64,000 nucleotides of DNA from Kiritimatiellia bacterium. GTDB taxonomy: Bacteria; Verrucomicrobiota; Kiritimatiellia; UBA8416; YA12-FULL-48-11. Both the position numbers and the translations under genes were made by a program. Positions 16,090 to 42,767 of this stretch are shown piece by piece. The notes under the pieces were generated by a model. It did not search any database, was not told the origin of the DNA, and was given only the letters and a program-made list of their open reading frames with translations. The number at the start of each line of letters is the position of its first letter. The stretch's first letter is position 1. Location: assembly GCA_028716365.1 (NCBI GenBank), contig JAQUPZ010000002.1, forward strand, positions 449,005 to 513,004, given 5' to 3'.

Positions 16090-16821
16090 TCAGCCAAACA
16101 CGAACTTTCCACTCATCACCACCTTGTTCTCCCCGTCAACAAGCTGGAATTGAGGCGCTGTTCCTTTTCTATCGTCACTGCAAACCATGTATTCGCCACC
16201 GTTACCATCAACATAAACTGGATTCATTGATATTGAATCAGACAACGCGGAAAAAGTCACTTTGATCGAAGCCTTGAGAGGTGGTCCTATTTTTAACTCA
16301 TGGAGATTTCCCGAAGTAACATCTACAGTACCAACAGGATCTCCAACTCCATGATAGTTTCCCTTTGCAATCCATTTCCGGTTGCTTTTATCCTGGGCAA
16401 CAGTTTCAAAATTACGAATGGTCAGCTTACCCGCCGGAACAGTAAATATCCCGTTAGAACTTGAAAAATTCTTCTGCCCAAGTTTGCCGCATTCCGCAAT
16501 CAAATGCGAATCACCTACGAACGCAACCTTTATTTTCCCAGTCTCACCCTTGTAGGAAGCAGCAGAAAAATCAGAAACCTTGCCGACGCCGGACATGGAA
16601 AATCTTGAAGAAACAAGAAATAAGTATAACACGTAGTAGCCCACAGTTGCGGCAAGGACAAATACACCCCATACGGATGCGAAGACAAGCCAGGCTTTGT
16701 AACCAGGGTTATTCTGGCTACGTGCCTTCAGCCCGATAACTAATGGAACAATCCATCCCCCCAGAAAGAACGAAGCCACTATTAATCCAAATATTACTGC
16801 AAATATTCCTGCAATTCCCAT
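16090..16821 (-). CDS. hypothetical membrane protein (3 N-terminal TM helices plus extracytoplasmic domain)
   Basis: The N-terminal 70 aa is strongly hydrophobic (MGIAGIFAVIFGLIVASFFLGGWIVPLVIGL...). No family match recognised. Confidence 0.5.
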   Translation of the reverse strand: MGIAGIFAVIFGLIVASFFLGGWIVPLVIGLKARSQNNPGYKAWLVFASVWGVFVLAATVGYYVLYLFLVSSRFSMSGVGKVSDFSAASYKGETGKIKVAFVGDSHLIAECGKLGQKNFSSSNGIFTVPAGKLTIRNFETVAQDKSNRKWIAKGNYHGVGDPVGTVDVTSGNLHELKIGPPLKASIKVTFSALSDSISMNPVYVDGNGGEYMVCSDDRKGTAPQFQLVDGENKVVMSGKFVFG

Positions 16822-17007: not shown

Positions 17008-17721
17008 TCACTTCTTATCTGGCGCAACTGATCTTCTATCGTCTTCTGTTATCTTCCCGCCCTTATAACCTTCGGAAAGTTTTTCCACCACAAGATCTTT
17101 AAGATACATCTCTCCCTTTGACGTAATACCAATACAATGTAGAGATATATACTTGACTGCCTTGATATTTTGCATTGCTACTTTTGACAGCTGGGGTGCC
17201 GGAAAATCGCGAATAATTCTATCCCAACCTTTGGAACTTACCTTCTTATCTCCTTCTCTATTGAAGTCGCCTTTATACCGTAAACGCATATCAAACAGGC
17301 TTGGATTTTCGTATGGTTTTACTCCGGGCTTGAATTGGTAACCCATTACGTAAATGTGATAAGTCGCTGAAGCCATAACACTGATTGAAAACCTGTAGCG
17401 GCACCCCTGTTCAAATGGAATGAGAGGACTGTCGACCTTAACGCCTATCCACCACATGGGCTGGTCTTTGTAACCCTTATCGTCATTTATGACCATTTTG
17501 ATGACATTTTTCTTACCGGCAAACTCCGGAAGCATCGATACATACTTGGTATTTTGGGCATAATTTTCATTCTGCATGGGGGTGTAGTCATAGGTCCAGT
17601 ACTTCCACGGGTTTTCAGGATTATCACAACTGCCATTTATCATAAGGTTACTGGTCGTTGCGGCCATTACAAAGGTGGTACAGACAAAAGAACAAATGAT
17701 CGAAACAACTAAGTGTTTCAT
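17008..17721 (-). CDS. hypothetical secreted protein (signal peptide)
   Basis: MKHLVVSIICSFVCTTFVMAATT signal peptide. Aromatic-rich sequence, possibly a carbohydrate-binding module. No named family. Confidence 0.5.
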   Translation of the reverse strand: MKHLVVSIICSFVCTTFVMAATTSNLMINGSCDNPENPWKYWTYDYTPMQNENYAQNTKYVSMLPEFAGKKNVIKMVINDDKGYKDQPMWWIGVKVDSPLIPFEQGCRYRFSISVMASATYHIYVMGYQFKPGVKPYENPSLFDMRLRYKGDFNREGDKKVSSKGWDRIIRDFPAPQLSKVAMQNIKAVKYISLHCIGITSKGEMYLKDLVVEKLSEGYKGGKITEDDRRSVAPDKK

Positions 17722-22825: not shown

Positions 22826-23458
22826 TCAGTTAATATTTCTACTATCCAAGACATCAGCTATAATTGTCAGTTCCTGAAGCAACATACGCAGACGATCAGG
22901 CCGTGCAAGAACAGCTTTGAAACTTTTTGTTGACCTGAGCGTTCCTTTACCAACACCAAATCCTTCTAACCCCGATTCGAAAACAAGATAACGTACGGCT
23001 TCGGCAAGTCTGCGGTCCGAACGGACAAGCCTGACAAAGTTGTCCTGATCTTCACCAACAACATACGCCGTCCTGGACCGCAGATCAACTTCGATTGCCC
23101 TGGAAAAGAGACACGTTTTTGACAATTTATCCAACATGAATACGAATGTCTTTGGAGCAACAAGGAATTGCATCTGACAGTTGGTCAATGAGACCGTTAC
23201 ACCGAAGTCTGCGCTGGATCCATTGACAGAATGGCTGCTTTTTATTGAAAATGAAAAATCCCGTTCTTTGTGTTTACACTTCAGAAGAAGGTTCTTTCCC
23301 AAACCAAAGGTGGACTCGTCAGACAATATACCGTGCAATAATTGCGTAGCCTCACGAAAATCGGCGGCGGCCCTGGTGGTTCTTTCACGGATAGTGACAG
23401 TAATCACAAAAATACCTAGGCCGGCGATCAAAAAACAAATGATATAAACCGTAAGCAT
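22826..23458 (-). CDS. hypothetical N-terminally membrane-anchored protein, divergent from the giant coiled-coil gene
   Basis: One N-terminal TM (MLTVYIICFLIAGLGIFVITVTI), then a 180-aa soluble domain with no recognisable family. Confidence 0.5.
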   Translation of the reverse strand: MLTVYIICFLIAGLGIFVITVTIRERTTRAAADFREATQLLHGILSDESTFGLGKNLLLKCKHKERDFSFSIKSSHSVNGSSADFGVTVSLTNCQMQFLVAPKTFVFMLDKLSKTCLFSRAIEVDLRSRTAYVVGEDQDNFVRLVRSDRRLAEAVRYLVFESGLEGFGVGKGTLRSTKSFKAVLARPDRLRMLLQELTIIADVLDSRNIN

Positions 23459-23688
23459 GCGAAATCCTTTGTATTTACAGAAGTCTAGTCAGGTCACGTT
23501 TTTGTGTCAATGTGGCTAAGGAATTTACTGCATTTTTCGGAAAAATACTCTGTCTCAAATTTAAATTGTTCAGGTAAAGTACCCACGATCCCCTTCTACC
23601 TCTGGAATTTCGGCAAAGAACATTACATTTGCACTTTTTATTCAATGCTGTTTGAATATACCAAAGTAACTGTAATGAGGCATTATTT

Positions 23689-26600
23689 ATGTCCAGAGTT
23701 CATGAATTTCTGCGGGGTGACAAGAAGCAGTTTCTCCGTAAATGGCATCTGAAAATACACGACGGGACAATCTACGGCCCGGTTGATATTTCGACTCTTT
23801 GCGCATGGGCCGCTCAGAGCCGTATAGCACCGGGTAACCTCATTTCAGAAGACAGGACAGAATGGTTTCCGGTACAGAATCTACCTGAGTTAAAAATGGA
23901 ATGGCAGGCTCGCCTTCCGAATAGTGAGACATATGGTCCGTTCAACGTCCTTGCCGTGCCTCACCTCGTTAAAAATGGAATCTTACCAGCTGAATCAACG
24001 TTGACTAACAATGTTTCCGGCAAGACACTTCAAGTCAAAGAACTTCTCAAGTCGACAACAAGTTCATCGACGGAACAACTGTACAAGTTGTCAACAGGGC
24101 AAACTGCAAAAGCACCGGAAGAACAGAAGAAACTGGATACGGATTCCCCCATGTTTCGCGAAACGGAAAGCCATCGGACTATCGGTACGATAACGCACCG
24201 CCAACCGGAATCTGTGGAAATCAAATCACCGAACCAGCAGGAATCTGGAAAATTTTCAGGCAAATCGAAATCTGTTCCTGAAGATTCCACATCCGAAGTA
24301 AACAAACTCAACGACAAGTTATCCAAACTCCACGAGGACAGTGAACGGATCAAAGCCCAGCTCGAAGTCACCGAAAAAGAACTTGTTACAGCGAAAAAAG
24401 AAAAAGAACACCTCGACAAACAAGCCATCGGACGGGAAAAACAACTGAAGGACCAGCTTGACAAGACTGAAAAGGAACTGCGGCTGACACGCGAAGAACT
24501 CTCCTCCGTAAGACAGAAAGTCAGTGAAGATACAAAGAGCGTTGACAACGTCGTAAAACTGGCGGTCAAGAAGGAACAGGATCTGAACAGAGCTCTGGAA
24601 GAGACTCGCAGAAAAGCCGAAGCTGACGCTGCCCTCCTCTATAAAGTCAAAACACAGCTCGAAGAAGTAAAGAACCAGAAATCCGAGATACAAAACCGTA
24701 CATCGCAGGAAGAAACCAGGCTCAAGGTACGTGTGCAGGACCTGGAAAAACAGATCCACATACTGAACACAGAAACACAAACACACAAAACCCAATACCA
24801 GACTCTTGAGAAAGATGCACAGTCACGGCAGGAGAAAATTCAATTACAGCTTGGCCAATTCAAGGAAAAGGCTGACGCTGCTGTAATAGAAATCGGGAGG
24901 CTGAAGAAGGAACTCGATGCCCAGAGATCACTCAATGTCGATATGACCAAGGTTGGAAGCGAAAAGGAATCCGCCCTTATCCTTGAAACACGCACGGCAA
25001 AGTCAGCCATGGCCAAAGCTGAGAATGAACTTGCCGCCTTGAGAAAACAGTTTGAAAACCTCAGGAACCAGAGCAGCCACAAGGAAACAGAACTCCAGCA
25101 ACGTATTGACCAGCTTAATAATGAATCGCGCAATACGTCAGTCACCATCGACAACCTGAAGAAAGAACTGGCGGCCCAGAACGAAGAATGCCGTACGCTT
25201 GAAAAACGCGCTAAGAATTTCGAAACTGACGTCGAAAAAACACAGGGAATAATCAGACAATTACAGGAAGACCGTACAGCACTTGAAGCAAGGAACAAGA
25301 AGCAGATCGAAGAACTTTCAAAGTACAAAGCAGACCTCGAGACAGAAAAGAACAGCCATACTGATATCCATACACGATCCCTGGAAGAAAAAAAACAACT
25401 CATCGCCAAGCTTGAACAATTACAGGCAGATAACAACAACATAACGGCAAAACTTCAGGACAACGAGAAGCAACTTGCCTTACAGAAACAGGAAAACGAC
25501 AAGGTTCGGGTGCAGATAGTTACCAAGGATGAGCAATTTGCCTCCCGGATTGATCAACTTAAGAGTGAACTTCAAACCGCTGTGCTTGAACTTAATGCCG
25601 CCAAACAGAAACATCTTGAGGAACGCAGAAACCTGGAATCACTGGAGAAACAGGCCCGCGCGAAGGAACAGGAAGCCCGTCACCTGCTTGACAAAACATC
25701 TGCCATCTCTGAATCAAAATCCTCACAACTTGAAAAAACAAAGAAAGAACTGGCCGACGCACTGGACGCCTTCGCCAGAATACAGGAACAGCATTCAAAA
25801 ACCAAAACACAGCTCGAAGAAGTAAAGAACCAGAAAACCGAGATACAAAACCGCACATCGCAGGAAGAAACCAGGCTCAAGGTACGTGTGCAGGACCTGG
25901 AAAAACAGATCCACATACTGAACACAGAAACACAAACACACAAAACCCAATACCAGACTCTTGAGAAAGATGCACAGTCACGGCAGGAGAAAATTCAATT
26001 ACAGCTTGGCCAATTCAAGGAAAAAGCTGACGCTGCTATAATAGAAATCGGGAGGCTGAAGAAGGAACTCGATGCCCAGAGATCCCTCAATGTCGATATG
26101 GCGAAGGTCGGAAACGAAAAGGAATCAGCCCTTATCCTTGAAACACGCACGGCAAAGTCAGCCATGGCCAAAGCTGAGAATGAACTTGCCACCTTGAGAA
26201 AACAGTTTGAAAATCTCAGGAACCAGAGCAGCCACAAGGAAACAGAACTCCAGCAACGTATTGACCAGCTTAATAATGAATCACGTAATTCGTCAGTCAC
26301 CATCGACAACCTGAAGAAAGAACTGGCGGCCCAGAACGAAGAATGCCGTACGCTTGAAAAACGCGCTAAGAATTTCGAAACTGATGTCGAAAAAACGCAG
26401 GGGATAATCAGGCAATTACAGGAAGACCGTACAGCGCTTGAAGCAAAGAACAAGAAGCAGATCGAAGAACTTTCAAAGTACAAAGCAGACCTCGAGACAG
26501 AAAAGAACAGCCATGCCGATGTCCGTACGCGATCCCTGGAAGAAAAGAACCAACTCATCGCCAGGCTTGAACAGTTACGGGCAGACAACAACAACATAAC

Positions 26601-29600
26601 AGCAAAACTTCAGGACAACGAGAAGCAACTTGCCTCGCAGAAAGAAGAATGCCTCAAACTTGAGAAACGTGCCAAGAATTTCGAAACTGACGCCGAAAAT
26701 ATGCAGGGGACAATCAGGCAATTACAGGAAGACCGTACAGCGCTTGACGCAAAGAACAAGAAGCAGATCGAAGAACTTTCAAAGTACAAAGCAGACCTCG
26801 AGACAGAAAAGAACAGCCATGCCGATGTCCACACGCAATCCCTGGAAGAAAAGAACCAACTCATTGCCAAGCTCGAACAGTTACAGGCAGACAACAACGA
26901 CATAACAGCAAAACTTCAGGACAACGAGAAACAACTTGCCTTGCAGAAACAGGAAAACGACAAGGTTCAGACCCAGACAGTCGCCAAGGATGAACAATAT
27001 GCCAGGCAAATCGATCAACTTAACCATGAATTACAAACCGTTATTTTTGATCTCAATGCCGCCAAGCAGACACATCTTGAGGAACGCAGGCATCTGGAAT
27101 CACTCGAAAAAGAAGCCCGTGCAAAAGAACAGGAAACTCTCCGTCTGCTCAACGAAACATCAGCCGGTTTTGAAGCAAAACACACAGAGCTTGAAATAAC
27201 AAAGAAGGAACTTGCCGATGCACTGGACGCCTTTGCCAGAATGCAGGAACAACATGTAAAAGTTGAGGCCGACCTCAGGCAAAATCTCGAAGAGAAGGAA
27301 AGCAATATCTCAGAGGTTGAAAAATCATTAGATGATTTGAAGAAAGAACTTGCCAGGCAAAAAGAACACTACGAAGCCGTTCTCGAAGGTGAAATGCAAA
27401 GGGGAAAGAACTTTGCAAGCAATGCTTCAATGTTAGAAGAGAAACTCCAATCGGAATCCAGCATACTTGCGGAAACCAACAGAAAACTTGCCGAAATACA
27501 GGATATGCTCAACAGGGAACAGGACCGTTTCAAGAACGAGAAGGCGGGACTGGAACAAACCATCAGCCAGTTACAGGAGGATAAATCCAAAACCGAGAAA
27601 ACCGTTGAATCACTGGAGGAACAGATCCGTGAAGGGGAACAGGAAACTCTCCGTCTGCTCAACGAAACATCAGCCGGTTTTGAAGCAAAACACACAGAAC
27701 TTGAAATAACAAAGAAGGAACTTGCCGATGCCCTGGCTTCTATCATGCAAATGCAGGAACAACACGCAAAAGTTGAGGCCGGTCTCAGGCAAAATCTCGA
27801 AGAGAAGGAAAGCAATATCTCAGAGGTTGAAAAATCATTAGATGATTTGAAGAAAGAACTTGTCAGGCAAAAAGAACACTACGAAGCCGTACTCGAAGGC
27901 GAAATACAAAGGGAAAAGAACCTCGAAATCAGTACTTCTGCATTAGAAGGAAGGTTCCAATCCGAATCCAACATGCTTGCCGAAATCAGGGGAAAACTTG
28001 CAGAGACACAGAACCTGCTCGAAAAGGAACAGAACCGTTTTGAGGCAGAAAAGACGGAACTGAAACAAACCATCAACCAGTTACAGAAGGATAAATCCAA
28101 AACCGAGAGAACCGTTGAATCACTGGAGAAACAGGCACATACGAAGGAACAGGAAATCCGTCTAATATTCGAAGAAATGTCCAACCGTTATGAAGCAAAA
28201 CACACAGAGTTTGAAACAACAAAGAAAGAACTTACCGACGCCCTGGCTTCTATTGGACACATAAAGGAACAACATTCAAAAGTCGAGACCGACCTCAGAC
28301 AAAACCTCAAGGAACAAGGAAACAAAATCTCAGAGATTGAAAAATCATTAGACGATTCAACGAAAGCGCTCGCAAAACAAAAAGCACATTACGAACTCAT
28401 CATCGAGGACGAACGACAAAAAGGAAAGAACCTCGCAAGTAACGTTTCAATGCTCGAAGAAAAACTCCAATCGGAATCCAATAAACTTGCGGAAACCAAC
28501 AGAAAACTTGCCGAAATACAGGATATGTTCAACAAGGAACAGGACCGTTTCAAGAACGAGAAGGAGGAACTGGAACAATCCGTCGTCAGCTTCCTGCAGG
28601 ATAAATTGAAAGTTGCAGAAATTACGGAATCGCTGGAAAAGAAACTTGAAAAATTGGAAAGTGATTTCACGGCCAAGGAAACTCTGCTGTCAGAAACAAA
28701 GAAAGCACTCGAAAGAGAACGAACACAATGCCTGGATATTTCATTATCAAGCACAAGCAAGGAAGCCGAATTGCAGAAAAGGATCAACGAAATTCAGCAA
28801 AACCTTGATAGACAGAAACAACTCCTCGAACGTACTGAGCAGAAAGATTCTGTAAAAATCAATGAAATGAGCGGCAGAATAAAAGAACTCGAAGAAACAT
28901 CCGCCGCCAACACGAAACAATACGAGCATAACCTTAAAGAAGAGCAGAAACAGAACAAGTCTCTGCAAAAAGAATTGAGCAAACTCCAGGAACGACAAAA
29001 GGCGATCGAAGCAACTGCAACAGGTGAAAAAGCAAAGACTGGAGCTGGCTTACTATTGCCGCAGACAGGACTCTTCTCTCTAACTAACCGTTATTCGACG
29101 ACCACAAGGATTGCAGCAGTATTGTTAATCCTGGCAGTATGTTCAATCGGTATGTTCACTATAGGCATACATAGAGGACGTATCAAGGCTCAGGCACTGG
29201 TACAGGCTCAGTATGACCAACAGAACGATCGACAGGTTGCAGCGGATACCATTGTGCAAAGCAACCAGACAACTGTGGCCGTACAGCCAAAAATCGCGCC
29301 TCCCCGTATCAACGTGGAACGCACAATAACCACCTATACAGAAAAGTCATGTGTGATTGTTTTTGATTTCGGACTTTTCAACATGAGAACAAATCTTACG
29401 AACGATGCGGAAGATACTCTTGAGGCGGTGGCTTCACAAATCCGCAAGTCGATGAATGATTACATGCTTATCATAGAAGGACATTCAGACACAATGAAGG
29501 CGAGTTCAGACAAAACTGTTGCAGACAACCAGACTCTCGGCATGGCAAGAGCAAACAAGGTTCTCGATATACTGAAGAACAAGTTCGACCTGCCGGGAGA

Positions 29601-29709
29601 TTCAATGTTGGCGACATCCACCGGCGAAAAGGACCCTCCATTCTCCAATACAGATGATGCTTCAAGAAGAAAAAATCGAACGGTCATACTGAAGCTCGTC
29701 CCGAAATAA
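23689..29709 (+). CDS. giant (2006 aa) coiled-coil protein: two N-terminal DUF4339/GYF-like domains, ~1700 aa repetitive coiled coil, single TM helix, C-terminal OmpA-like peptidoglycan-binding domain
   Basis: GAGG SD 8-11 nt before the ATG. The N-terminus (WHLKIHDGTIYGPVDISTLCAWAAQSRIAPGNLISEDRTEWFPVQNLPEL plus a second copy) fits DUF4339. The long E/K/Q/L-rich heptad sequence is built from internal repeats. The hydrophobic stretch is IAAVLLILAVCSIGMFTIGI. The C-terminus (IIEGHSDT...NQTLGMARANKVLDIL...STGEKDPPFSN...RRKNRTVILKL) has the OmpA_C/MotB pattern (GHTD, N..LS..RA..V, NRRVEI). Confidence 0.85.
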   Translation: MSRVHEFLRGDKKQFLRKWHLKIHDGTIYGPVDISTLCAWAAQSRIAPGNLISEDRTEWFPVQNLPELKMEWQARLPNSETYGPFNVLAVPHLVKNGILPAESTLTNNVSGKTLQVKELLKSTTSSSTEQLYKLSTGQTAKAPEEQKKLDTDSPMFRETESHRTIGTITHRQPESVEIKSPNQQESGKFSGKSKSVPEDSTSEVNKLNDKLSKLHEDSERIKAQLEVTEKELVTAKKEKEHLDKQAIGREKQLKDQLDKTEKELRLTREELSSVRQKVSEDTKSVDNVVKLAVKKEQDLNRALEETRRKAEADAALLYKVKTQLEEVKNQKSEIQNRTSQEETRLKVRVQDLEKQIHILNTETQTHKTQYQTLEKDAQSRQEKIQLQLGQFKEKADAAVIEIGRLKKELDAQRSLNVDMTKVGSEKESALILETRTAKSAMAKAENELAALRKQFENLRNQSSHKETELQQRIDQLNNESRNTSVTIDNLKKELAAQNEECRTLEKRAKNFETDVEKTQGIIRQLQEDRTALEARNKKQIEELSKYKADLETEKNSHTDIHTRSLEEKKQLIAKLEQLQADNNNITAKLQDNEKQLALQKQENDKVRVQIVTKDEQFASRIDQLKSELQTAVLELNAAKQKHLEERRNLESLEKQARAKEQEARHLLDKTSAISESKSSQLEKTKKELADALDAFARIQEQHSKTKTQLEEVKNQKTEIQNRTSQEETRLKVRVQDLEKQIHILNTETQTHKTQYQTLEKDAQSRQEKIQLQLGQFKEKADAAIIEIGRLKKELDAQRSLNVDMAKVGNEKESALILETRTAKSAMAKAENELATLRKQFENLRNQSSHKETELQQRIDQLNNESRNSSVTIDNLKKELAAQNEECRTLEKRAKNFETDVEKTQGIIRQLQEDRTALEAKNKKQIEELSKYKADLETEKNSHADVRTRSLEEKNQLIARLEQLRADNNNITAKLQDNEKQLASQKEECLKLEKRAKNFETDAENMQGTIRQLQEDRTALDAKNKKQIEELSKYKADLETEKNSHADVHTQSLEEKNQLIAKLEQLQADNNDITAKLQDNEKQLALQKQENDKVQTQTVAKDEQYARQIDQLNHELQTVIFDLNAAKQTHLEERRHLESLEKEARAKEQETLRLLNETSAGFEAKHTELEITKKELADALDAFARMQEQHVKVEADLRQNLEEKESNISEVEKSLDDLKKELARQKEHYEAVLEGEMQRGKNFASNASMLEEKLQSESSILAETNRKLAEIQDMLNREQDRFKNEKAGLEQTISQLQEDKSKTEKTVESLEEQIREGEQETLRLLNETSAGFEAKHTELEITKKELADALASIMQMQEQHAKVEAGLRQNLEEKESNISEVEKSLDDLKKELVRQKEHYEAVLEGEIQREKNLEISTSALEGRFQSESNMLAEIRGKLAETQNLLEKEQNRFEAEKTELKQTINQLQKDKSKTERTVESLEKQAHTKEQEIRLIFEEMSNRYEAKHTEFETTKKELTDALASIGHIKEQHSKVETDLRQNLKEQGNKISEIEKSLDDSTKALAKQKAHYELIIEDERQKGKNLASNVSMLEEKLQSESNKLAETNRKLAEIQDMFNKEQDRFKNEKEELEQSVVSFLQDKLKVAEITESLEKKLEKLESDFTAKETLLSETKKALERERTQCLDISLSSTSKEAELQKRINEIQQNLDRQKQLLERTEQKDSVKINEMSGRIKELEETSAANTKQYEHNLKEEQKQNKSLQKELSKLQERQKAIEATATGEKAKTGAGLLLPQTGLFSLTNRYSTTTRIAAVLLILAVCSIGMFTIGIHRGRIKAQALVQAQYDQQNDRQVAADTIVQSNQTTVAVQPKIAPPRINVERTITTYTEKSCVIVFDFGLFNMRTNLTNDAEDTLEAVASQIRKSMNDYMLIIEGHSDTMKASSDKTVADNQTLGMARANKVLDILKNKFDLPGDSMLATSTGEKDPPFSNTDDASRRKNRTVILKLVPK
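24649..26958 (+). repeat. intragenic tandem duplication: ~1155-bp unit (385 aa) x2 at near-identical nucleotide level, containing a nested 306-bp (102 aa) subunit present 1x in copy 1 and 2x in copy 2
   Basis: AAAACACAGCTCGAAGAAGTAAAGAACCAGAAA... occurs at 24649 and again at 25804 with only scattered substitutions. GAAGAATGCC(G/T)... subunits start at ~25183, 26338 and 26644. Confidence 0.8.
27127..28656 (+). repeat. intragenic tandem repeat: 510-bp (170 aa) unit x3, third copy more diverged
   Basis: GAACAGGAAACTCTCCGTCTGCTCAACGAAACATCAGCCGG at 27127 and 27637, and GAACAGGAAATCCGTCTAATATTCGAAGAAATG at 28147. The protein-level repeat reads QETLRLLNETSAGFEAKHTELEITKKELADAL. Confidence 0.8.
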
Positions 29710-29715
29710 AGCTTT

Positions 29716-30834
29716 CTATCTGTTATTCCCGAAGTTCGGGTTTTCCTTGCGAAAACGATATTCCTTTTCGATATCTTCCATCATCATGTCGTACATGTCC
29801 GTACCGGGCATGACAACCCGTTCCTCAATGGGTTGGCCTGAAGCAATACGGAAAATATCTTCCAGATAGCTTTCGGCATCCAGCCCTTGACGCCGCGGAT
29901 CAAAATAATGACCGTACAGATGCAGAGAATCACTGATGTCCGTATAACTGCCTTTCTTGATGGGGACACCCAATGCTTCTTCGACCCCACGCCTGACTTC
30001 CTCATGAATGCCCTCTGTTACACCGAAAATATTTGATGGTACAGCCTTGAGATGATCCCTTGACCGCCAGTGACCGTTCACGTTAAGGACATAACCCTTC
30101 TGATCGTTCAGGGGCAGAAGCCTGAACCAGAACCTTTGAAGGCAGGGAGAATGATAACTATCCCACTTGAACGTACCCATCTGTTCGTCGTTATGATCCC
30201 AGCGAGGATCCCAGGTAATACATTGTGCAGACCTGCTCAGAGGTTCCCTTTTCAGATTGTTGATGACTGACTTCAGCTGGTTGATTGTTTTCAGATTGCC
30301 TTTAAAATCAAAATATGGATACGCGCGGAATCTCTGACTGTACGTGTAATTCCACCGCTCATCGCCTTTTACCTCATCGAATTTGCCTTCTTTCATTTTC
30401 TGGGCAACCATGACAGGAGAAATCATCCATCCATCCTTCACTCCTTCAATTTCAGCTTTGTAGTCACCAAACCCCATCCATCCGCCAAGATAATGTTTAT
30501 GAAACCGCGGTTCACCAAATGGTTCTTCTATGTGCATCATTACAGTGGCTTCGATGCTCGGAAAACTGTCATAAACGCCATCTTTCCGTTTTGGATCATA
30601 GTGGGTATGAATTTCGCGGCCGAAAGCCATCAATGCCATCGTGGTATCTTCCCAGACTTCAGGAAGCGTTCTTCGTGCAATAAACATACTCGAAGCACAA
30701 CCATCGGTCGATTCAGAAAAAGCAATTTTCCCATTGGCCCTGAGCTTCAGGACATATTCTTTTGCAACTTTTCGTGCTTCTTTGAAAGTTTCTGCAGGCC
30801 CTTTTTTTGCCAGCATATCCTTGACAATACTCAT
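29716..30834 (-). CDS. thymidylate synthase (ThyA)-superfamily protein, divergent long form (372 aa) with ~130-aa N-terminal extension
   Basis: [26 protein letters not shown] aligns to the ThyA segment [36 protein letters not shown] aligns to APCHAFFQFY (catalytic Cys), and [15 protein letters not shown] to YQRSCDVFLGLPFNI. A 4-nt overlap with dut indicates an operon. Confidence 0.7.
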
Positions 30835-31298
30835 TTCTTTTTTTCTCCCTTGTGATTATATCCGGTGGAACCAAATCCTCCACTACCCCTGTGACTGTCT
30901 GACAGATCTGTAACTTCATGTACCTCGGCGCGAAGGACCGGCTTGAGAACCATCTGGGCAATTTTGGAACCCTTTTCAACCACGAATTTCTCCTTTCCAT
31001 GATTAATCAGGATTACGCCTACTTCCCCCCTGTATCCTTCATCTATTGTGCCAGGAGTATTAAGTACTGATATACCATGTTTAAGCGCAAGGCCGCTCCG
31101 CGGTCTGACCTGCGCCTCGGTATTGGGAGGCAGTTCAATGGAGAGTCCTGTTTTAACAAGAACATGTTCATTGGGCCCGATATCAACACGTTGATTCGAA
31201 AAAAGATCCATACCGGCATCACCGGGATGTGCATACTGGGGCATTATCGCATCATCACTCAGTTTTTTTACTTTAAGAATCATGGAACTCATAACCAT
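30831..31298 (-). CDS. dut: dUTP diphosphatase
   Basis: [41 protein letters not shown] and GGFGSTG motifs. The true start may be the internal MILKVKK. Confidence 0.85.
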
Positions 31299-33888: not shown

Positions 33889-35862
33889 GTGGGTATCAGG
33901 TTTACGCGCGATCAATGCCTTAACCTGGAAACATCGTTGCGTCAGGAGTGGATTGATACAAACGGGCTTGGCGGGTATGCGTCGTCAACGATCCTGGACT
34001 GTCACACAAGGAAGTACCATGGTTTGCTGGTGGCAAATCTAAAAAAGCCCGCGGGAAGATTTGCTCTTTTGAGCAAACTCGAAGTATCAATACGCGCCGG
34101 CGACAGTGAATTCCGGCTTTCTACCAACAAGTATCCGGGTGTCTTCGATCCGACCGGTCATAAGTACATCGAGAGTTTCGAATATAAAACTTTCCCTGTA
34201 ACAAACTACGTGATTGGCGATATATGCCTGTCAAAATCAGTAATGATTGTGTACAGCGAAGACACTGTACTTGTACGGCTTGATCTTCACAAAGCCCAAA
34301 AGCCCGTGATTGTCCGTGCCCTGCCCCTTCTCTCTTACCGTGATCTTCATGGACTTACACGTCAGAACATGTATCTGCGCGTAAAAACATTTCCGGAAGA
34401 TGATGGCCATAAAATCAACCCTTATGAGTTAATGCCGCCAATGTATCTTGACTGGGACGGAAAGATGACGTTCTATCCCGGTCCTCATTGGTACAGTAAC
34501 GTTGAGTATCTTAAAGAACTCAGTCGTGGTTATGACTACCAAGAAGATTTATTTTGCCCTGGTACGTACGAGGCCGAATTAAAACCGGGGGAATCCCTTA
34601 TTTTTCAGGCATCACTCAATAAGCATTCAATCCCGGTATCAAAAGTCTGGGCGGACGAACTTGTCCGACGAAAGAAAGCCGGGGAAACATTTGCCGGTCA
34701 ACCGGAAAATGTCGCCATGCTTAAGACCCACAGCGAGAAATTCCTCATAACAAACAACCGGAACTGTCAGGGTATTATTGCAGGTTATCACTGGTTTGGG
34801 GAATGGGGCCGCGACACAATGATTGCGCTTCCCGGCCTGACATTTCATTGCGGGCAAACAGCCGCCGGTTTTAATATTCTTAAAACATGGGCTGAGGAAG
34901 AGAAAAATGGTCTTCTTCCCAATATTCTCGGTACGGAATCAAGCGGAAACGCCTATAACTCCATCGACACATCGCTCTGGTTTTTCAGGGCTGTACAGGA
35001 ATATATTTACGTGACCAATGACTGGGGGGGTGTAAAAAGACATTTGGCAAGGGCGATGCAAAATATCATCGAAACCTGGCTTGAAGGAAAAACACCTCTG
35101 CTGAAAATCACCAAACACGGGCTCGTATGGGCGGGTACAGCTGACACACAACTGACATGGATGGATGCCAAATCCAAGGGCAAACCCGTAACCCCGCGAC
35201 ATGGCATGGCGGTTGAAATCAACGCTCTCTGGTATAATGCATTATGTTTTTATCTTGAATTTTGCAAGGTGGCAAAATTTAAGAAGCCCAAAGTGGTTAC
35301 CGGCTGTAAACAACTTTTTGAGAAAAACTTTTCACGGATTTTCTGGTTCAACGATGGTTATTATCTTTCGGATGTTGTAAATGAAGCAGGACAAGACACA
35401 TCAGTACGGCCAAACCAAATACTATCAGTCTCACTCCCCTATTCACCCTTGAGCCGCGCCCAGATGCAGGGAATTATCAATGTCGTTAAAGACCAGCTTG
35501 TAACGCCATATGGACTCCGGACACTTTCCCCAAAAAACAGTTTATATCACCCGTTTTATCACGGCAACCAGGACCAGCGAGACGCGGCCTATCACCAGGG
35601 AACCGTCTGGCCGTGGCTGGTTGGACATTTTGCAGAAGCCTGTCTCAGGATTGCGGTAAATAAAAGTGCAGAAAAGGAATACCTGAGAAGGACATTTGAA
35701 CCGCTCTGGTCGTCACACCTGCATGAATTCGGGCTTTATGGTATATCCGAGATTTTTGACGGTAATCCGCCTCACAAGGCCAAGGGATGCATCACCCAGG
35801 CATGGAGTGTTGCGGAAATAATCCGTACACTTGAAATGTTGAAGGGAAATTCACGTTTATGA
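33889..35862 (+). CDS. glycogen debranching enzyme, amylo-alpha-1,6-glucosidase (GDE_C) family
   Basis: GYHWFGEWGRDTMIALPGL and the (alpha/alpha)6-barrel region. GTG start. Confidence 0.8.
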   Translation: MGIRFTRDQCLNLETSLRQEWIDTNGLGGYASSTILDCHTRKYHGLLVANLKKPAGRFALLSKLEVSIRAGDSEFRLSTNKYPGVFDPTGHKYIESFEYKTFPVTNYVIGDICLSKSVMIVYSEDTVLVRLDLHKAQKPVIVRALPLLSYRDLHGLTRQNMYLRVKTFPEDDGHKINPYELMPPMYLDWDGKMTFYPGPHWYSNVEYLKELSRGYDYQEDLFCPGTYEAELKPGESLIFQASLNKHSIPVSKVWADELVRRKKAGETFAGQPENVAMLKTHSEKFLITNNRNCQGIIAGYHWFGEWGRDTMIALPGLTFHCGQTAAGFNILKTWAEEEKNGLLPNILGTESSGNAYNSIDTSLWFFRAVQEYIYVTNDWGGVKRHLARAMQNIIETWLEGKTPLLKITKHGLVWAGTADTQLTWMDAKSKGKPVTPRHGMAVEINALWYNALCFYLEFCKVAKFKKPKVVTGCKQLFEKNFSRIFWFNDGYYLSDVVNEAGQDTSVRPNQILSVSLPYSPLSRAQMQGIINVVKDQLVTPYGLRTLSPKNSLYHPFYHGNQDQRDAAYHQGTVWPWLVGHFAEACLRIAVNKSAEKEYLRRTFEPLWSSHLHEFGLYGISEIFDGNPPHKAKGCITQAWSVAEIIRTLEMLKGNSRL

Positions 35863-37160
35863 AAGTCCTCATGTTCGGCTGGGAGTTCCCTCCATATATA
35901 AGCGGTGGATTGGGAACGGCTTGTTTCGGACTGACCAGGCATATGTCGGATCAGGGAACAAATATCCTTTTTGTTCTGCCGCACATCAAGGATGAACCGG
36001 TAGAAGATTCCTTCCTGGAGCTTGTTGCCGCAAACAAAGTGGATATATCTGATGCAAAAATCAAGAAAATCGCACGTGGTGAACCATTAAAGTTCTTCAT
36101 GGTAAATTCCCCCCTCCGCCCCTACATGACCGACAACAGCTATCTTTCAAAACTGGATGCCATACGCAGTATAAACGAACGTATCTCAAAAATAACACAC
36201 AGGAAAATAACCCCGTATAGCGTTCTGGACACATCGGGAGAATACGGGCGCGACCTTCTTACTGAAGTCAGTCGTTACGCTTATATCGGAGGTTATCTGG
36301 GCGCAACTGAAGATTTTGACATTATACATGCCCATGACTGGATGACATTTCCGGCTGGCGTCGAAGCAAAAAAAGCCAGCGGTAAAAAACTCGTTATACA
36401 TGTTCATGCCACCGAATTTGACCGTTCCGGGGACAACGTAAACCAACAGGTATACGACATCGAACGTTACGGCATGGAAAATGCCGACAGGATTATTGCC
36501 GTCAGCCACCGCACCAAAAATATTATCGTTGAACATTACGACCAGGATCCGGAAAAGATTATTGTTATCCATAACGCAGTAATAAAAGAAGAAAAACTGG
36601 CACATGTCCGCAGCCGCAAAGGATTCAGCGAAAAAATTGTTCTTTTCCTCGGCCGTGTGACAATGCAAAAAGGACCCGATTACTTTATCGAGGCAGCAAA
36701 TCTGGTCCTTAATTCAATGCAGAATGTGCGATTTGTGATGGCAGGCACAGGTGACATGCTGCCCCGCATGATTGAACGTGTTGCCGAACTGCGCATGCAG
36801 GATCATTTTCATTTCACTGGCTTTCTCCGCGGGGTCGACCTGGAAACAATGTTTTCCATGAGTGATTTATACGTAATGCCTTCAGTTTCCGAACCATTCG
36901 GGATAACGCCATTTGAGGCAATGCTCTATGGCATTCCTGTAATAATTTCCAAACAGTCTGGAATTTCGGAAGTATTAACCCATGTGATGATGGTGGATTT
37001 CTGGGACATCGAAAAGCTGGCATCATGTATCATTAATGTACTCAGACATCCGGAACTGGCTGAAACTCTCGTAGAATCAGGACATAATGATCTTGAAAAA
37101 ATCAGCTGGCATCATGCAGCCAGGGACGTAATCAATCTTTACAAAGAAATGCTGGGCTGA
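35859..37160 (+). CDS. glycosyltransferase family 4 (alpha-glucan/glycogen synthase-like)
   Basis: GT-B fold GT4 C-terminal motif EPFGITPFEAMLYGIPVI, HAHDW. 4-nt overlap with the upstream gene. Confidence 0.8.
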   Translation: MKVLMFGWEFPPYISGGLGTACFGLTRHMSDQGTNILFVLPHIKDEPVEDSFLELVAANKVDISDAKIKKIARGEPLKFFMVNSPLRPYMTDNSYLSKLDAIRSINERISKITHRKITPYSVLDTSGEYGRDLLTEVSRYAYIGGYLGATEDFDIIHAHDWMTFPAGVEAKKASGKKLVIHVHATEFDRSGDNVNQQVYDIERYGMENADRIIAVSHRTKNIIVEHYDQDPEKIIVIHNAVIKEEKLAHVRSRKGFSEKIVLFLGRVTMQKGPDYFIEAANLVLNSMQNVRFVMAGTGDMLPRMIERVAELRMQDHFHFTGFLRGVDLETMFSMSDLYVMPSVSEPFGITPFEAMLYGIPVIISKQSGISEVLTHVMMVDFWDIEKLASCIINVLRHPELAETLVESGHNDLEKISWHHAARDVINLYKEMLG

Positions 37161-37162
37161 AT

Positions 37163-38362
37163 ATGGTTTCTGTTTGTTTTTATTTTCAAGTTCATCAGCC
37201 ATTCCGTCTTAGAACGGATTATAATTTCTTCTGTATCGGCAAAAATCATGTTTACGAGGATGATAAGGCAAACCGCGAAATCATCGGGAAAGTTGCTGAA
37301 AAATGCTATCTCCCTGCCAACAGAACCATGCTTAAACTCATTCGCAAACACAAGGGGCGTTTCCGTATCAGTTATTCCATATCCGGTGTCTGTCTTGAAC
37401 AATTTGAAAAATATGCTCCGGAAGTCATAGATTCTTTCAGGGAACTTGTATCAACGGGCTGTGTCGAACTTATCAACGAGACATACTACCACTCACTGGC
37501 TTTTAATTTCTCACGGCAGGAATTTCGCGAACAGGTACAGGCACACAAAGAGAAAATCCGCAAATTGTTCGCCGTAAAAACAACGACATTCCGTAACACC
37601 GAACTTATTTACAGTAATGACGTGGCGGTTGAAATCGAAAAAATGGGTTATAAAACCATTCTTGCCGAGGGAGCCAACCAGATTCTCGGGTGGCACTCAC
37701 CAAATTATGTTTACCAACCGGCACCTTGTTATAAGCTCAATCTTCTCCTCAAAAATTACCGTTTGTCGGATGATCTTGCGTTCCGGTTCTCCGATCGTAA
37801 CTGGGACCAGTGGCCCCTAAGCGCCGACAAGTACGCCGAATGGATCCACAAAGTCGCAGGCAACGGTGAAGTTATCAACCTGTTCATGGACTATGAAACA
37901 TTTGGCGAACACCAGTGGGCCGACACCGGCATATTTGATTTTCTTCTTCATCTGCCGGAAAAGATCCTTGCCCATCCCGATTTCCGCTTCCAGACGCCTT
38001 CGGAGGTGGCATCATCTTATCAACCAGTGGCAAAACTGGATGTGCCTTATTTTATTTCCTGGGCCGATGTCGAGCGGGATCTCACCGCGTGGATGGGTAA
38101 TTCACTTCAGGATTCGGCCCTGCAAATGGCCTATTCGCTCGAAACACTGGTAAAAAAATCCGGTAATGCCAACCTGATACATACCTGGAGAAAACTGCTC
38201 ACATCCGACCATTTCTACTACATGTGTACTAAATGGTTCAGTGATGGAGATGTTCATAAATACTTCAATCCCTATACTTCACCTTATGATGCCTACGTCG
38301 TATATGTGAATGTATTGAACGACATCAAGGAAACTCTCAAACAACTCGAAGTATTGAATTGA
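37163..38362 (+). CDS. glycoside hydrolase family 57 protein
   Basis: N-terminal FYFQVHQPFRLR GH57 signature, plus WMGN and EW...E residues. Confidence 0.75.
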   Translation: MVSVCFYFQVHQPFRLRTDYNFFCIGKNHVYEDDKANREIIGKVAEKCYLPANRTMLKLIRKHKGRFRISYSISGVCLEQFEKYAPEVIDSFRELVSTGCVELINETYYHSLAFNFSRQEFREQVQAHKEKIRKLFAVKTTTFRNTELIYSNDVAVEIEKMGYKTILAEGANQILGWHSPNYVYQPAPCYKLNLLLKNYRLSDDLAFRFSDRNWDQWPLSADKYAEWIHKVAGNGEVINLFMDYETFGEHQWADTGIFDFLLHLPEKILAHPDFRFQTPSEVASSYQPVAKLDVPYFISWADVERDLTAWMGNSLQDSALQMAYSLETLVKKSGNANLIHTWRKLLTSDHFYYMCTKWFSDGDVHKYFNPYTSPYDAYVVYVNVLNDIKETLKQLEVLN

Positions 38363-38521
38363 CAAGTAATCCCGTCTTTTCCTAGTGTTCCCGGATTTAC
38401 GAACTTTGAGAAGCGTTAATTGCGTCCGGGGACAAAGCAGATGTAATCAACTCGTATGTGTGGATGCGGTTATAGGGGTTCTCCTGATCTCTGATTCCCT
38501 TTTGAAAGGTTAAACGATTAA

Positions 38522-41080: not shown

Positions 41081-41270
41081 CGTGTCAGGTAAACCCATAA
41101 TTCCTGCTCTATCGGCCAGTTCCCTGGGAACTGGCACTCCGGATACTCTCTCCAGATCATTTCCCTGTGGTCGGGAGAATTTTTTCAGGATCAATCAAGG
41201 GGAACTCCTGCACCTTGAAATTATTTTCCAACACCCCCAGCCTAAACCCTCAGTATCACTTTTTACAAAC

Positions 41271-42767
41271 ATGAACAATCAATCCACCGGATGGTATGAA
41301 CTGCCATTCCGCTATATTGAGGGCCGTAAATTCCAACTGGACATAAAATGCTCTAAACCGGGGCGTTATTGTTTCAGGGTAAAGTATACACTTGACGGTC
41401 ACAAGTGGATGTGGGATTGCGTTCCCTTCTCATACGTAATGGTTGATCCGGCACTCCATTCAACCATAAAAACATATACCCTGATAACTTCATCGGCAGG
41501 TAATATCAGCGACTGGACAAGACTGCTTCCCCACATTAAAAAACTGAAATGCAATGTTTTACACCTCCTTCCAGTCACAAAAATGGGAAGTTCCGAAGCG
41601 CCATATGCCGCAAAAGATTTTTTCAGTGTTGATCCGGCAATCCTCGATCCCAAATCCAAAGATGATGGAATAACGCAATTCAGCAGATTTATTGATGAAG
41701 CAGTTAAACATAAAGTGCATATATGTATTGACCTTGTCTTTAACCATGTCAGTGACGATAGTAACATTGTAAAGATATGTCCTGAATGGGTTCAAGCCGA
41801 CGAAAAAGAAATTGATGGTTTTCGCCGAGCCGGCTGGAGGGCTGGCGAAATCTGGCATAAATGGAACAACCTTGTACTCCTCGATTATGATCATCCGAAT
41901 GAAAAAGTTAAAAAAGAAATATGGGACTATATGTGCCAATACGGTCTCTTTTGGGCTGAATTCGCAGCACGAACCAAGGGAATGATCCGCCTCGATAATT
42001 TACACAGTAGTAATCACAAGTTTATGCGGTATGTCCTTACCAAAATCCGGAGGACATATCCGGAAATCACGATTTTCGCCGAACTCTTTACGGATACGGC
42101 GACATCTTCAGAACTTGTGTGGGACTATGGATTGGACCTCATGCTTGCAACCCCATGGGAACATCATTTTGTTCCTCAACTGCGTGGATATCTCGAGGAA
42201 GTTCACAAACGCGACAAACAAACCCCCCATATCCTGCCAATCACATCACATGATAGCGGAACACCAGCACAGGAATTCGGAAGCCCTGAGTCAACCATTC
42301 CGCGCTATGTTATCTCTGCTTTGATGGGATGCGGAGCAACCGGACTTGTCCAAGGAGTAGAATATGGTCTACAGAAGAAGATCAGTCTAGTCGGGATCAA
42401 ACCTGCACCCGATTATAACACTGGTCACGATTTCACATCCTTTATTGCCAAGGTTAACCTCATAATGGAAGAATACAAAGTGTTCCAGACAGGCGGGAAT
42501 ATGCGGTTTATTGATGATGGTCATGATGCCATAATGGCCGTCCATCGCTTTGACGACAAAAAGAATGATCACGAATTCGTTGTGATCTGTAACCTCGATA
42601 TTTTAAAGCAGCAGAAAATTTCAATTGATCTGCGACGTTACATGCCTGATCATAAAATCCGGGCATTTAAAGAACTTTTGACAGACAAAACGATAACACC
42701 AATAAAAGACCATCTGGAAGTCACCATGGAACCGTGTAGTGCTCTTGTCCTCAAAATTCTACCTTAA
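41271..42767 (+). CDS. GH13 alpha-amylase-family protein (possibly maltosyltransferase GlgE-like)
   Basis: GH13 conserved regions DLVFNHVSDDS, GMIRLDNLH, FAELF and ITSHDS. Start set at MNNQSTGWYELPF (ATG 41271) because the ORF-track 5' extension overlaps glgP. Confidence 0.7.
   Translation: MNNQSTGWYELPFRYIEGRKFQLDIKCSKPGRYCFRVKYTLDGHKWMWDCVPFSYVMVDPALHSTIKTYTLITSSAGNISDWTRLLPHIKKLKCNVLHLLPVTKMGSSEAPYAAKDFFSVDPAILDPKSKDDGITQFSRFIDEAVKHKVHICIDLVFNHVSDDSNIVKICPEWVQADEKEIDGFRRAGWRAGEIWHKWNNLVLLDYDHPNEKVKKEIWDYMCQYGLFWAEFAARTKGMIRLDNLHSSNHKFMRYVLTKIRRTYPEITIFAELFTDTATSSELVWDYGLDLMLATPWEHHFVPQLRGYLEEVHKRDKQTPHILPITSHDSGTPAQEFGSPESTIPRYVISALMGCGATGLVQGVEYGLQKKISLVGIKPAPDYNTGHDFTSFIAKVNLIMEEYKVFQTGGNMRFIDDGHDAIMAVHRFDDKKNDHEFVVICNLDILKQQKISIDLRRYMPDHKIRAFKELLTDKTITPIKDHLEVTMEPCSALVLKILP

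Follow-up and report, generated by a model that had tools for sequence, protein, structure and literature searches.

A predicted peptidoglycan-anchored protein with GYF modules and a giant coiled-coil rod appears to represent an uncharacterised family of Lentisphaerota, Kiritimatiellia and Verrucomicrobiota

Introduction

HubP and FimV of Vibrio and Pseudomonas are peptidoglycan-anchored, bitopic landmark proteins with large cytoplasmic scaffolds (PMC12918733). Each has a periplasmic peptidoglycan-binding domain, one transmembrane helix and a very large, client-recruiting cytoplasmic part that is strongly divergent between species (PMC12918733). In the Agl-Glt gliding machinery of Myxococcus xanthus, the GYF domain of GltJ, likewise a bitopic envelope protein, recruits the coiled-coil protein AglZ via a proline-rich sequence (PMC11135422; PMC11761067). 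The Zorya complex ZorA5B2 is a peptidoglycan-anchored inner-membrane assembly that joins a dimeric peptidoglycan-binding domain to a cytoplasmic coiled-coil tail of ~70 nm, which recruits soluble effectors away from the membrane (PMC11946911). Here, we describe a gene at positions 23689..29709 (+ strand) of a 64,000-nucleotide stretch of DNA from a Kiritimatiellia bacterium (assembly GCA_028716365.1, contig JAQUPZ010000002.1, positions 449,005 to 513,004), which is called the window throughout. Its 2006-residue product appears to unite a peptidoglycan-binding domain, a transmembrane helix, a very long coiled-coil rod and a pair of GYF modules in a single polypeptide.

Other proteins resemble the window protein and its relatives in part of their layout. 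MotB, PomB and MotS have an N-in single transmembrane helix, a periplasmic linker and an OmpA-like domain with the motif GHTD...N..L...RA. MapZ (LocZ) of streptococci is a wall-fixed positional beacon, a bitopic protein with a cytoplasmic N-terminal FtsZ-binding region, one transmembrane helix and an extracellular C-terminal peptidoglycan-binding domain. Crescentin, FilP and Scy are intermediate-filament-like (IF-like) proteins, very long heptad-based rods without a transmembrane helix or a peptidoglycan-binding domain. The eukaryotic golgins, such as giantin, are held by a C-terminal transmembrane anchor and capture clients with N-terminal motifs; they have no wall anchor.

Results

A peptidoglycan-binding domain and a pair of GYF modules form the two ends of the protein

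At the C-terminus, aa 1872-2006 (29302..29706; this and all following features of the gene lie on the + strand) constitute a MotB/OmpA-type peptidoglycan-binding domain, as judged from Pfam, a structural model and Foldseek. Pfam OmpA (PF00691) covered aa ~1901-1997 with 51.8 bits against a gathering score of 27.2 (E 1e-13). A model of aa 1866-2006, based on 35 family sequences, had a predicted local distance difference test score (pLDDT) of 90.5. Its Foldseek matches (E ~1e-9) comprised OprF-C, PA0833, H. pylori MotB-C (TMq 0.74-0.79), TssL, MotS and AbOmpA; TMq over the matches was 0.62-0.79. When the family profile was compared with PDB sequences, MotS and MotB were the best matches (E 2e-13 to 7e-12), and the family pattern EGHTD..P.SS.....DN..LG.ARA aligned with GHTD...I.....SNW.LS..RA of MotS/MotB. 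NCBIfam held no specific model, and every OmpA, MotB, TssL and Pal model in it scored far below its cut-off.

Residues G1931, D1934, N1947, L1950, R1954, P1984, N1996 and T1998 were invariant in the 35-sequence alignment. D1934 (nt 29488-29490) is the Asp of GHTD, and R1954 (nt 29548-29550) is the Arg of ..RA. In OmpA-like domains, as the AbOmpA and Pal structures illustrate, this Asp and Arg hold the diaminopimelate of the peptide stem. The NRT motif (aa 1996-1998) is family-specific; OmpA-like domains have NRR there. A preliminary description of this DNA, made from its letters alone, had pointed out OmpA/MotB landmarks at this place. The fold is indeed present and the D1934/R1954 pair is retained, and the domain would be expected to bind peptidoglycan non-covalently in the periplasm.

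At the opposite end, the cytoplasmic adaptor domain GYF_2 (Pfam PF14237) matched aa 19-68 (module 1; 23743..23892), which was also supported by the model and by Foldseek. The score was 35.0 bits when the N-terminus was scanned alone and 26.7 bits when the full-length protein was scanned, the cut-off being 25.8 bits. The adjoining aa 71-122 (module 2; 23899..24054) gave no Pfam match even at E = 10. Module 2 was recognised as a diverged tandem copy of module 1 from its secondary structure and by a profile-profile comparison in hhalign, in which the halves of a family alignment with 29 sequences matched each other at a probability of 96.3% (E 1.6e-9). Within module 2, close relatives share an invariant segment, YGPFNVLAVP.

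An AlphaFold2 model of aa 18-122, computed on the 29-sequence alignment, had a mean pLDDT of 96.6 and a predicted template-modelling score (pTM) of 0.85, and the order beta-beta-alpha-beta-beta appeared in it twice. Among solved structures, Foldseek listed one multi-domain TIC-complex chain first and then GYF domains, namely those of GIGYF1/2, Smy2, Arabidopsis 1wh2 and Myxococcus GltJ (7z3c), with probabilities of 0.89-0.99, those for GIGYF1, Smy2 and GltJ being 0.96-0.99, and with TMt values of 0.43-0.55; the output does not say which module each GYF match covers. In the comparison of the family profile with PDB sequences, module 1 touched GIGYF1/2 (E 0.09-0.11) and module 2 weakly touched the GltJ GYF domain (7z3c, E 0.088), neither being significant alone. 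We conclude from the alignments and the model that the N-terminus is a tandem pair of GYF_2-type modules packing into one unit. Two N-terminal GYF-like modules had already been proposed in the preliminary description; the first is borne out by Pfam, the second by hhalign and the model and not by Pfam.

The GYF pair is followed by a low-complexity linker of ~75 aa (aa 123-200; 24055..24288), which holds 5 of the protein's 21 prolines. It contains the short motif SPMFRETESHRTIG (aa 153-166; nt 24145-24186), which is conserved within the subclade of the window protein. The form S-P-[LM]-[LF]-x-E-[AT]-[EH]-x-[QH]-[RK]-[TS]-I is common to the window protein, L011, L013, P0005 and P0015 (L and P numbers denote related loci and family proteins, respectively). 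Another subclade has W-x-x-[LR]-Y-x-[ED]-E-K in its place. These subclade motifs may be docking motifs or the beginning of the coiled coil.

The same architecture recurs in a family of the PVC group

A phmmer search with the last 202 aa against 1.84 billion cluster representatives yielded 1063 matches at E <= 1e-3, with 231 at E <= 1e-10. Many of the matches were long proteins in which the match lay at the extreme C-terminus. The N-terminal double module of ~100 aa was also found in 57 of the best 150 C-terminal matches (local hidden Markov model, E 1e-32 to 1e-46), and most of the remaining matches among these 150 looked like fragments. The architecture is thus common, from end to end, to no fewer than 57 cluster representatives of 413-1748 aa. 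The earlier view that the three parts do not normally occur together has to be given up in the light of these relatives and of the loci described below. Word-indexed searches were nearly blind to the family: the C-terminus found nothing, and the N-terminus and the 29-sequence profile found three short metagenome fragments each.

We define the family by the N-terminal double module of ~100 aa, a single transmembrane helix 170-290 aa from the C-terminus and the pattern EGHTD...DN..LG.ARA...NRTV, all of which are present in the window protein. Pattern scanning, with one genome taken for each species, revealed 10 loci with a family gene. They belong to Lentisphaerae/Lentisphaerota bacteria, Victivallales, Victivallaceae, a metagenome-assembled genome (MAG) of Victivallis vadensis, a Kiritimatiellia MAG, a Verrucomicrobiota single-cell genome and one 'uncultured bacterium'. 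All 11 organism-named genome or metagenome loci (11/11) were assigned to Lentisphaerota, Kiritimatiellia or Verrucomicrobiota; the genome scan was seeded with close patterns, and the taxonomic range may be wider. Loci L003-L013 conform to the family definition.

The source annotations of the family members are generic ('OmpA family protein', 'hypothetical protein' or 'flagellar motor protein MotB'). No dedicated Pfam or NCBIfam family covers the window protein, and our full-text literature searches, which were incomplete in coverage, found no description of an architecture of GYF, coiled coil and OmpA. The preliminary description had not recognised a described family in the protein, and this still stands. 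Sequence comparison suggests an uncharacterised family of the Planctomycetes–Verrucomicrobia–Chlamydiae (PVC) group, found in Lentisphaerota, Kiritimatiellia and Verrucomicrobiota, whose members would be bitopic inner-membrane proteins assembled from known domains.

Two metagenome fragments of the family end early. In L001 (909-1436), a stop codon ends the frame after 175 aa at a point where L011, identical in sequence otherwise, reads on, and the family fragment of L002 (1151-1887) shifts frame into the coiled-coil reading frame. Both premature ends are probably sequencing or assembly errors. Such early ends help to explain the short 'proteins' seen by the word-based searches.

The coiled-coil rod is the variable part of the family

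Between the linker and the transmembrane helix lies a proline-free, heptad-periodic rod (aa ~201-1790; 24289..29058), delimited by composition, Fourier analysis and register trace. Proline is absent from aa 197 to 1791, and Glu, Lys, Leu, Gln and Ala account for 57% of the rod residues. The core hydrophobic residues gave one dominant Fourier peak at 3.53 residues, and the contrast between a/d and other positions was 0.464 as compared to 0.247 ± 0.010 in shuffled sequence (28-residue windows). A crude, home-made trace of the heptad register, which over-calls coil in the globular ends and was used only inside the rod, revealed register runs of 36-157 residues with ~24 register shifts between them, mostly of the stutter type. 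Such shifts fit a period slightly above 3.50. The rod had previously been described as about 1700 aa of uninterrupted coiled coil; its heptad character is clear, its length is ~1590 aa, and the register shifts show that it is not uninterrupted.

Most of the rod of the window protein is made of recent internal tandem duplications, which have roughly doubled its length and had escaped notice in the preliminary description. These protein duplications were found by a diagonal identity scan; a BLAST self-comparison gave no off-diagonal pairs. The first duplication has a period of 385 aa (1155 nt) and spans 24586..26706, with 84% protein identity between aa 300-621 and aa 685-1006. Its DNA segments are 94-98% identical over hundreds of bases, and the 385-aa unit is single-copy in the closest relatives. 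A third, partial copy of this unit (26569..27009) is found at an offset of 102 aa (306 nt), aa 961-1107 being 67% identical to aa 859-1005. Further downstream, three tandem repeats of 170 aa (510 nt) with ~62% protein identity occupy aa 1122-1654 (27052..28650). In BLAST comparisons with the 57 full-length relatives, this region matched no other member of the family.

The same comparisons located conservation in aa 1-120 and aa 1840-2006 and, more weakly, around the transmembrane helix. Of the 57 relatives, only ~10 showed recognisable similarity to the first ~400 rod residues. Rod lengths in the family extend from ~200 to ~1600 aa, about a ten-fold range, and the window rod is the longest seen. 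Tandem repeats that are independent of and unrelated to those of the window protein occur in other members, with units of 94 aa in P0011, 56 aa in P0012, 92 aa in P0052 and 78 aa in L003. With the ends conserved, the rod not conserved and several members carrying tandem repeats of their own, the rod seems to behave as a spacer under weak sequence constraint that has been lengthened repeatedly by duplication.

The window protein is twice as long as its syntenic ortholog in L013 (1000 aa). Thus, its great length is lineage-specific and not defining for the family. A cytoplasmic extension on the 250-nm scale had been suggested before; the rod would measure ~236 nm if aa 201-1790 were fully extended, so the value holds for this protein and, owing to the lineage-specific duplications, does not hold as a property of the family.

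A single transmembrane helix suggests an N-in/C-out topology

A Kyte-Doolittle scan of the whole protein identified one transmembrane helix, IAAVLLILAVCSIGMFTIGI (aa 1808-1827; 29110..29169), which has no acidic residue. With a value of 2.53, this is the sole peak above 1.6 in the entire protein, and the scan found no N-terminal hydrophobic or signal-peptide-like segment. Both the single helix and the missing signal peptide agree with the preliminary description. Asp and Glu are also absent from the helix of 56 of the 57 relatives. Across the family, the one strong hydrophobic helix lies 170-288 aa (median 201) from the C-terminus, and the part N-terminal of it ranges from ~200 to ~1800 aa. 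The helix of the window protein is followed by a periplasmic linker (aa 1828-1871; 29170..29301), whose length and sequence vary across the family.

Since there is no signal peptide and the peptidoglycan-binding domain has to be periplasmic, the topology is most readily read as N-in/C-out, as in MotB. The distribution of Lys and Arg within 15 residues on either side of the helix points in the same direction for the family as a whole. Averaged over 58 members, it was 3.0 on the N-side versus 2.2 on the C-side; the N-side had more of these residues in 34 members, both sides had equal numbers in 15, and the N-side had fewer in 9. The proposal of a peptidoglycan-anchored protein with a very long cytoplasmic extension thus stands, on the strength of the missing signal peptide and the family-wide flank bias.

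In ~17 of the 58 members, all of them shorter ones (413-700 aa), a Cys is present on the periplasmic side within ~6 residues after the helix, in contexts such as RGC, KGC, PGC and KSC; this count concerns the family proteins P0048-P0140. In a parallel dimer, such a residue could link the two chains by a disulfide bond. The window protein has no Cys at this place, its cysteines being C1818 in the helix and C1888 in the peptidoglycan-binding domain.

The gene occupies a stable chromosomal position

The gene is a complete open reading frame (ORF) of 2006 codons plus stop (23689..29709). It starts with ATG, and its single reading frame is not interrupted anywhere, including all repeat junctions. 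A GAGG sequence is located 8 nt 5' of the ATG, and the MSxVH N-terminus is the start of the homologs, too. Collinear homologs cover both ends of the protein, in agreement with the preliminary description of a single ORF, and the possibility of an assembly chimera of separate genes was rejected for this reason. An exact-sequence look-up found no identical protein recorded elsewhere.

The upstream neighbour is divergent (22826-23458, - strand) and the downstream neighbour is convergent (29716-30834, - strand), beginning 6 nt past the stop codon; the giant gene is therefore taken to be monocistronic. A scan for promoters and terminators upstream of it gave nothing better than chance on the + strand. 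Its GC content (0.41-0.46) is the same as that of the surroundings. Owing to the abundance of Lys, Glu and Gln codons on the coding strand, the AT skew reaches very high values (0.43-0.48). Two antisense ORFs of 200 aa lie inside the gene (24840-25442 and 25995-26597, both - strand) and were duplicated together with the repeat; an antisense ORF is also 'conserved' in the L013 ortholog (7155-7673, - strand). Rather than being genes, these ORFs most likely arise from the A-rich, stop-poor antisense frames that come with a coiled-coil gene.

The closest genome is that of Lentisphaerae bacterium RIFOXYA12_FULL_48_11 (L011), whose thyA-like, dut and cardiolipin-synthase (cls) genes are 92%, 82% and 79% identical to those of the window. 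Its family protein has at least 1297 aa (about 1350), the N-terminus being cut by the contig end, and shares 53% identity with the window protein over the first ~570 aa and 31% over the rest. L013, a metagenome contig of 53.7 kb, carries a divergent lpxC, the 1000-aa family member and convergent genes for the thyA-like protein, dut, cls and a glycogen-debranching enzyme. The latter four are 91%, 79%, 75% and 75% identical to their window counterparts, respectively. The divergent upstream neighbour is lpxC in L001, L003, L006, L009, L010 and L013, and lpxC is close by in L005 (Pfam LpxC, E 1e-34 to 1e-37). The family gene thus has a stable position between lpxC and thyA-like/dut in related genomes, which fits a core cellular gene.

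In the window, synteny breaks directly upstream of the giant gene (22826-23688), where a 210-aa orphan gene takes the place that lpxC has in relatives; no lpxC homolog was found in the 64 kb. The product of this gene (22826-23458) has an N-terminal hydrophobic helix, and it matched nothing in Pfam, NCBIfam or PADLOC and had no homolog in any related locus. The preliminary description had named it as a possible partner, a role for which it is no longer a candidate, given that seven related loci have lpxC there or close by. The genes following it encode an M28 peptidase and an alpha/beta hydrolase.

The convergent neighbour (29716-30834, - strand) encodes a thymidylate-synthase-like protein of 372 aa, which scored 23.9 bits against a cut-off of 24.3 for Pfam Thymidylat_synt and matched TIGR03283 'thy_syn_methano' at E 7e-20, far below the cut-off of that model. 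It is 74-92% identical in L010, L011 and L013, and sequence comparison identifies it as an apparently atypical, well-conserved ThyA-like enzyme of the clade. Its stop codon overlaps the start of dut (30831-31298, - strand).

The genes of the wider window serve housekeeping functions and the metabolism of carbohydrates, with trpE/G, TatD, a sodium:solute symporter, a fucosidase, an alpha/beta hydrolase, an M28 peptidase, cls, glycogen genes and an ABC transporter. Among the neighbouring ORFs that were scanned, there was no match to motility, secretion or MotA/ExbB/TolQ families. A co-directional glycogen/alpha-glucan cluster (33889-42767, + strand) encodes the debranching enzyme (GDE_N/GDE_C), a GT4/starch-synthase-like transferase, a GH57 protein, a DUF3417-type phosphorylase and an amylase-like glucanotransferase. 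The gene next to the end of this cluster encodes a polytopic membrane protein of 719 aa without a Pfam match (42809-44968). Two adjoining genes for proteins of ~240 aa with N-terminal hydrophobic segments and no Pfam match (16090-16821 and 17008-17721, both - strand) lie beside that for the alpha-L-fucosidase. A cluster of three tRNAs (1947-2355, + strand) accounts for the sole Rfam matches of the window at gathering threshold.

Discussion

Pfam finds only GYF_2 and OmpA in the window protein, which belongs to the OmpA/MotB-like superfamily and to the GYF_2 family and not to the stator B subunits, Zorya or HubP/FimV. Its resemblance to HubP/FimV is functional and topological only, and the sequences share no homology beyond generic features. 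The peptidoglycan-binding domain of HubP/FimV is N-terminal, so that the orientation is reversed, and it is LysM-like instead of OmpA/MotB-like. The cytoplasmic part of HubP/FimV consists of acidic repeats and a C-terminal tetratricopeptide-repeat 'FimV' domain, whereas the window family has a coiled coil and GYF modules. GltJ carries the only characterised bacterial GYF domain, which is cytoplasmic and N-terminal in a single-pass protein with a periplasmic C-terminal domain, and a cytoplasmic GYF pair in the window family agrees with this location. Unlike the window family, GltJ has a ZnR domain, a switch linker and only one GYF domain; it lacks a long coiled coil of its own, and its periplasmic domain is TonB-C-like, not OmpA-like. 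Moreover, it works in a machine of 17 proteins from gene clusters, and no such cluster is present in the window. MapZ/LocZ shares neither domains nor a coiled-coil rod with the family and occurs in Gram-positive hosts. Golgins follow the same geometric logic; as for the IF-like proteins, there is no homology to them beyond coiled-coil composition.

In our opinion, the family is best explained as a peptidoglycan-anchored tether or landmark that spans the inner membrane and presents GYF adaptors in the cytoplasm, a reading to which we would give about an even chance. Its functional analogues would be HubP/FimV, which it would resemble most, as well as MapZ and GltJ. It is suggested by constrained ends, a rod that is free in length, a single, stably placed gene and the lack of any enzymatic or channel feature. 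According to this model, the C-terminal ~135 aa would bind periplasmic peptidoglycan and thereby fix the position of the protein in the envelope, and one N-in/C-out helix would span the inner membrane. Everything N-terminal of this helix would be cytoplasmic: the coiled-coil stalk, the flexible linker and, at the far end, the compact GYF pair. Since MotB/ZorB-type peptidoglycan-binding domains act as dimers, the stalk is probably a parallel dimer, that is, a two-stranded rod. The GYF pair, or two pairs in a dimer, would capture a client in the cytoplasm; the contact would most likely be a proline-rich segment, as in the binding of AglZ by the GYF domain of GltJ. The rod would set the distance of the client from, or along, the membrane, and this distance would be altered by tandem duplication, up to the ~1590 aa of the window genome.

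Several observations weigh against a tether or landmark. The ten-fold range of rod lengths fits a flexible tether and, just as well, a role in a structure or filament. The flanks of the window protein's own helix, with two Lys/Arg residues on the N-side and three on the C-side, do not favour an N-in orientation. A proline-rich GYF ligand was sought among the ORFs of the window, and only two spurious overlapping ORFs turned up; there is also no conserved co-transcribed partner gene to hint at function. Finally, the copy number of the repeats, and hence the exact length of 2006 aa, could reflect assembly.

If the rods are structural, they might self-assemble laterally under the inner membrane into a wall-anchored, IF-like cytoskeleton that is riveted to peptidoglycan and provides shape or strength, with the GYF modules as accessories. 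A proline-free heptad rod of ~1590 aa with stutter-like discontinuities recalls IF-like proteins, the peptidoglycan anchor could transmit force, and the housekeeping context of the gene would suit such a role. A lattice-forming protein, however, would be unusual in having a rod that varies from ~200 to ~1600 aa and is essentially unconserved in sequence. Furthermore, the strongest conservation is found in the GYF pair at the membrane-distal tip, which points to client binding as the selected function. We therefore regard a cytoskeleton as possible, yet rather improbable.

Slightly less probable still is a more specific form of tether, a prokaryotic counterpart of golgins or LINC complexes, in which the wall-riveted rod positions a large intracellular structure via its GYF tip. 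Candidates for this structure would be the nucleoid, storage granules, membrane invaginations and the division apparatus. Such a rod would reach up to a quarter of a micrometre into the cytoplasm, with tandem duplication adjusting its length to the geometry of the cell.

The tandem repeats also bear on whether the gene is real at its full length, as the assembly might have mis-resolved how many copies of the 1155-nt and 510-nt units there are. The near identity of the repeat DNA (94-98% over hundreds of bases), the much shorter orthologs in L013 and L011 and the missing record of an identical protein would fit an extreme length that is partly an assembly artefact. On the other hand, the copies can be told apart, with 84% and ~62% protein identity and many non-synonymous differences, the frame is intact at all junctions, and other family members have independent tandem repeats. 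We consider an artefact of this kind unlikely.

A Zorya-type transmitter of signals from the envelope to the cytoplasm, or a defence sensor, in which the peptidoglycan-bound module would sense disturbance of the envelope and the coiled coil would relay the signal to GYF-recruited effectors, is less likely again. ZorA5B2 offers a precedent for its geometry (PMC11946911), the ZorB models of PADLOC match the C-terminal domain (best E 1.5e-9), and the rod evolves much faster than the neighbouring genes. The ZorB matches, however, span the generic peptidoglycan-binding domain only, and the transmembrane helix has no protonatable residue. No gene for a ZorA/MotA-like channel, a nuclease or another effector is found near the giant gene in the window or next to its counterparts in related loci. 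Zorya is a proton-driven motor with effector genes in defence islands, with the tail on the pentameric, MotA-like ZorA and the anchor on ZorB. The window protein carries anchor and rod in one polypeptide, and its gene is fixed beside lpxC, thyA-like and dut in several genomes and not located in a variable island. A defence system was rejected on the basis of this context and of the PADLOC results, which comprised the generic ZorB match and a coiled-coil JetC match only.

An ion-driven motor subunit such as a MotB-type stator with an unusual N-terminal extension was rejected as well and is very improbable: among solved proteins, MotS and MotB come closest to the C-terminal domain in sequence, some pipelines label family members 'flagellar motor protein MotB' and the topology is that of MotB, but the proton-carrying Asp is missing from the helix, no MotA/PomA/ExbB/TolQ-like gene was found among the scanned window neighbours or the conserved neighbours of related loci, and the MotB-type models of NCBIfam scored far below their cut-offs. 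The cytoplasmic N-terminus has ~1800 aa in the window protein as compared to ~30 aa in MotB/PomB/MotS. The earlier comparison with a MotB-like anchor thus holds for the peptidoglycan-binding domain and not for a stator.

The protein is less singular than previously thought, as it belongs to a clade-wide family and owes its extreme length to recent local expansion. Knowledge of how the cell interior and the envelope are organised in Lentisphaerota, Kiritimatiellia and related bacteria is very scarce, and cultured relatives such as Victivallis are suited to study the family. Rods of ~200 to ~1600 aa represent a natural series of length variants that would be useful for testing whether spacer length matters. 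If a tether or landmark is the correct explanation, the few wall-anchored landmark and scaffold proteins known (HubP/FimV, MapZ and GltJ-type adaptors) would be joined by a family of new architecture, which would also provide a second bacterial context for GYF domains beside GltJ. If the proposed topology is right, the family would constitute a direct physical link between peptidoglycan and a point deep in the cytoplasm.

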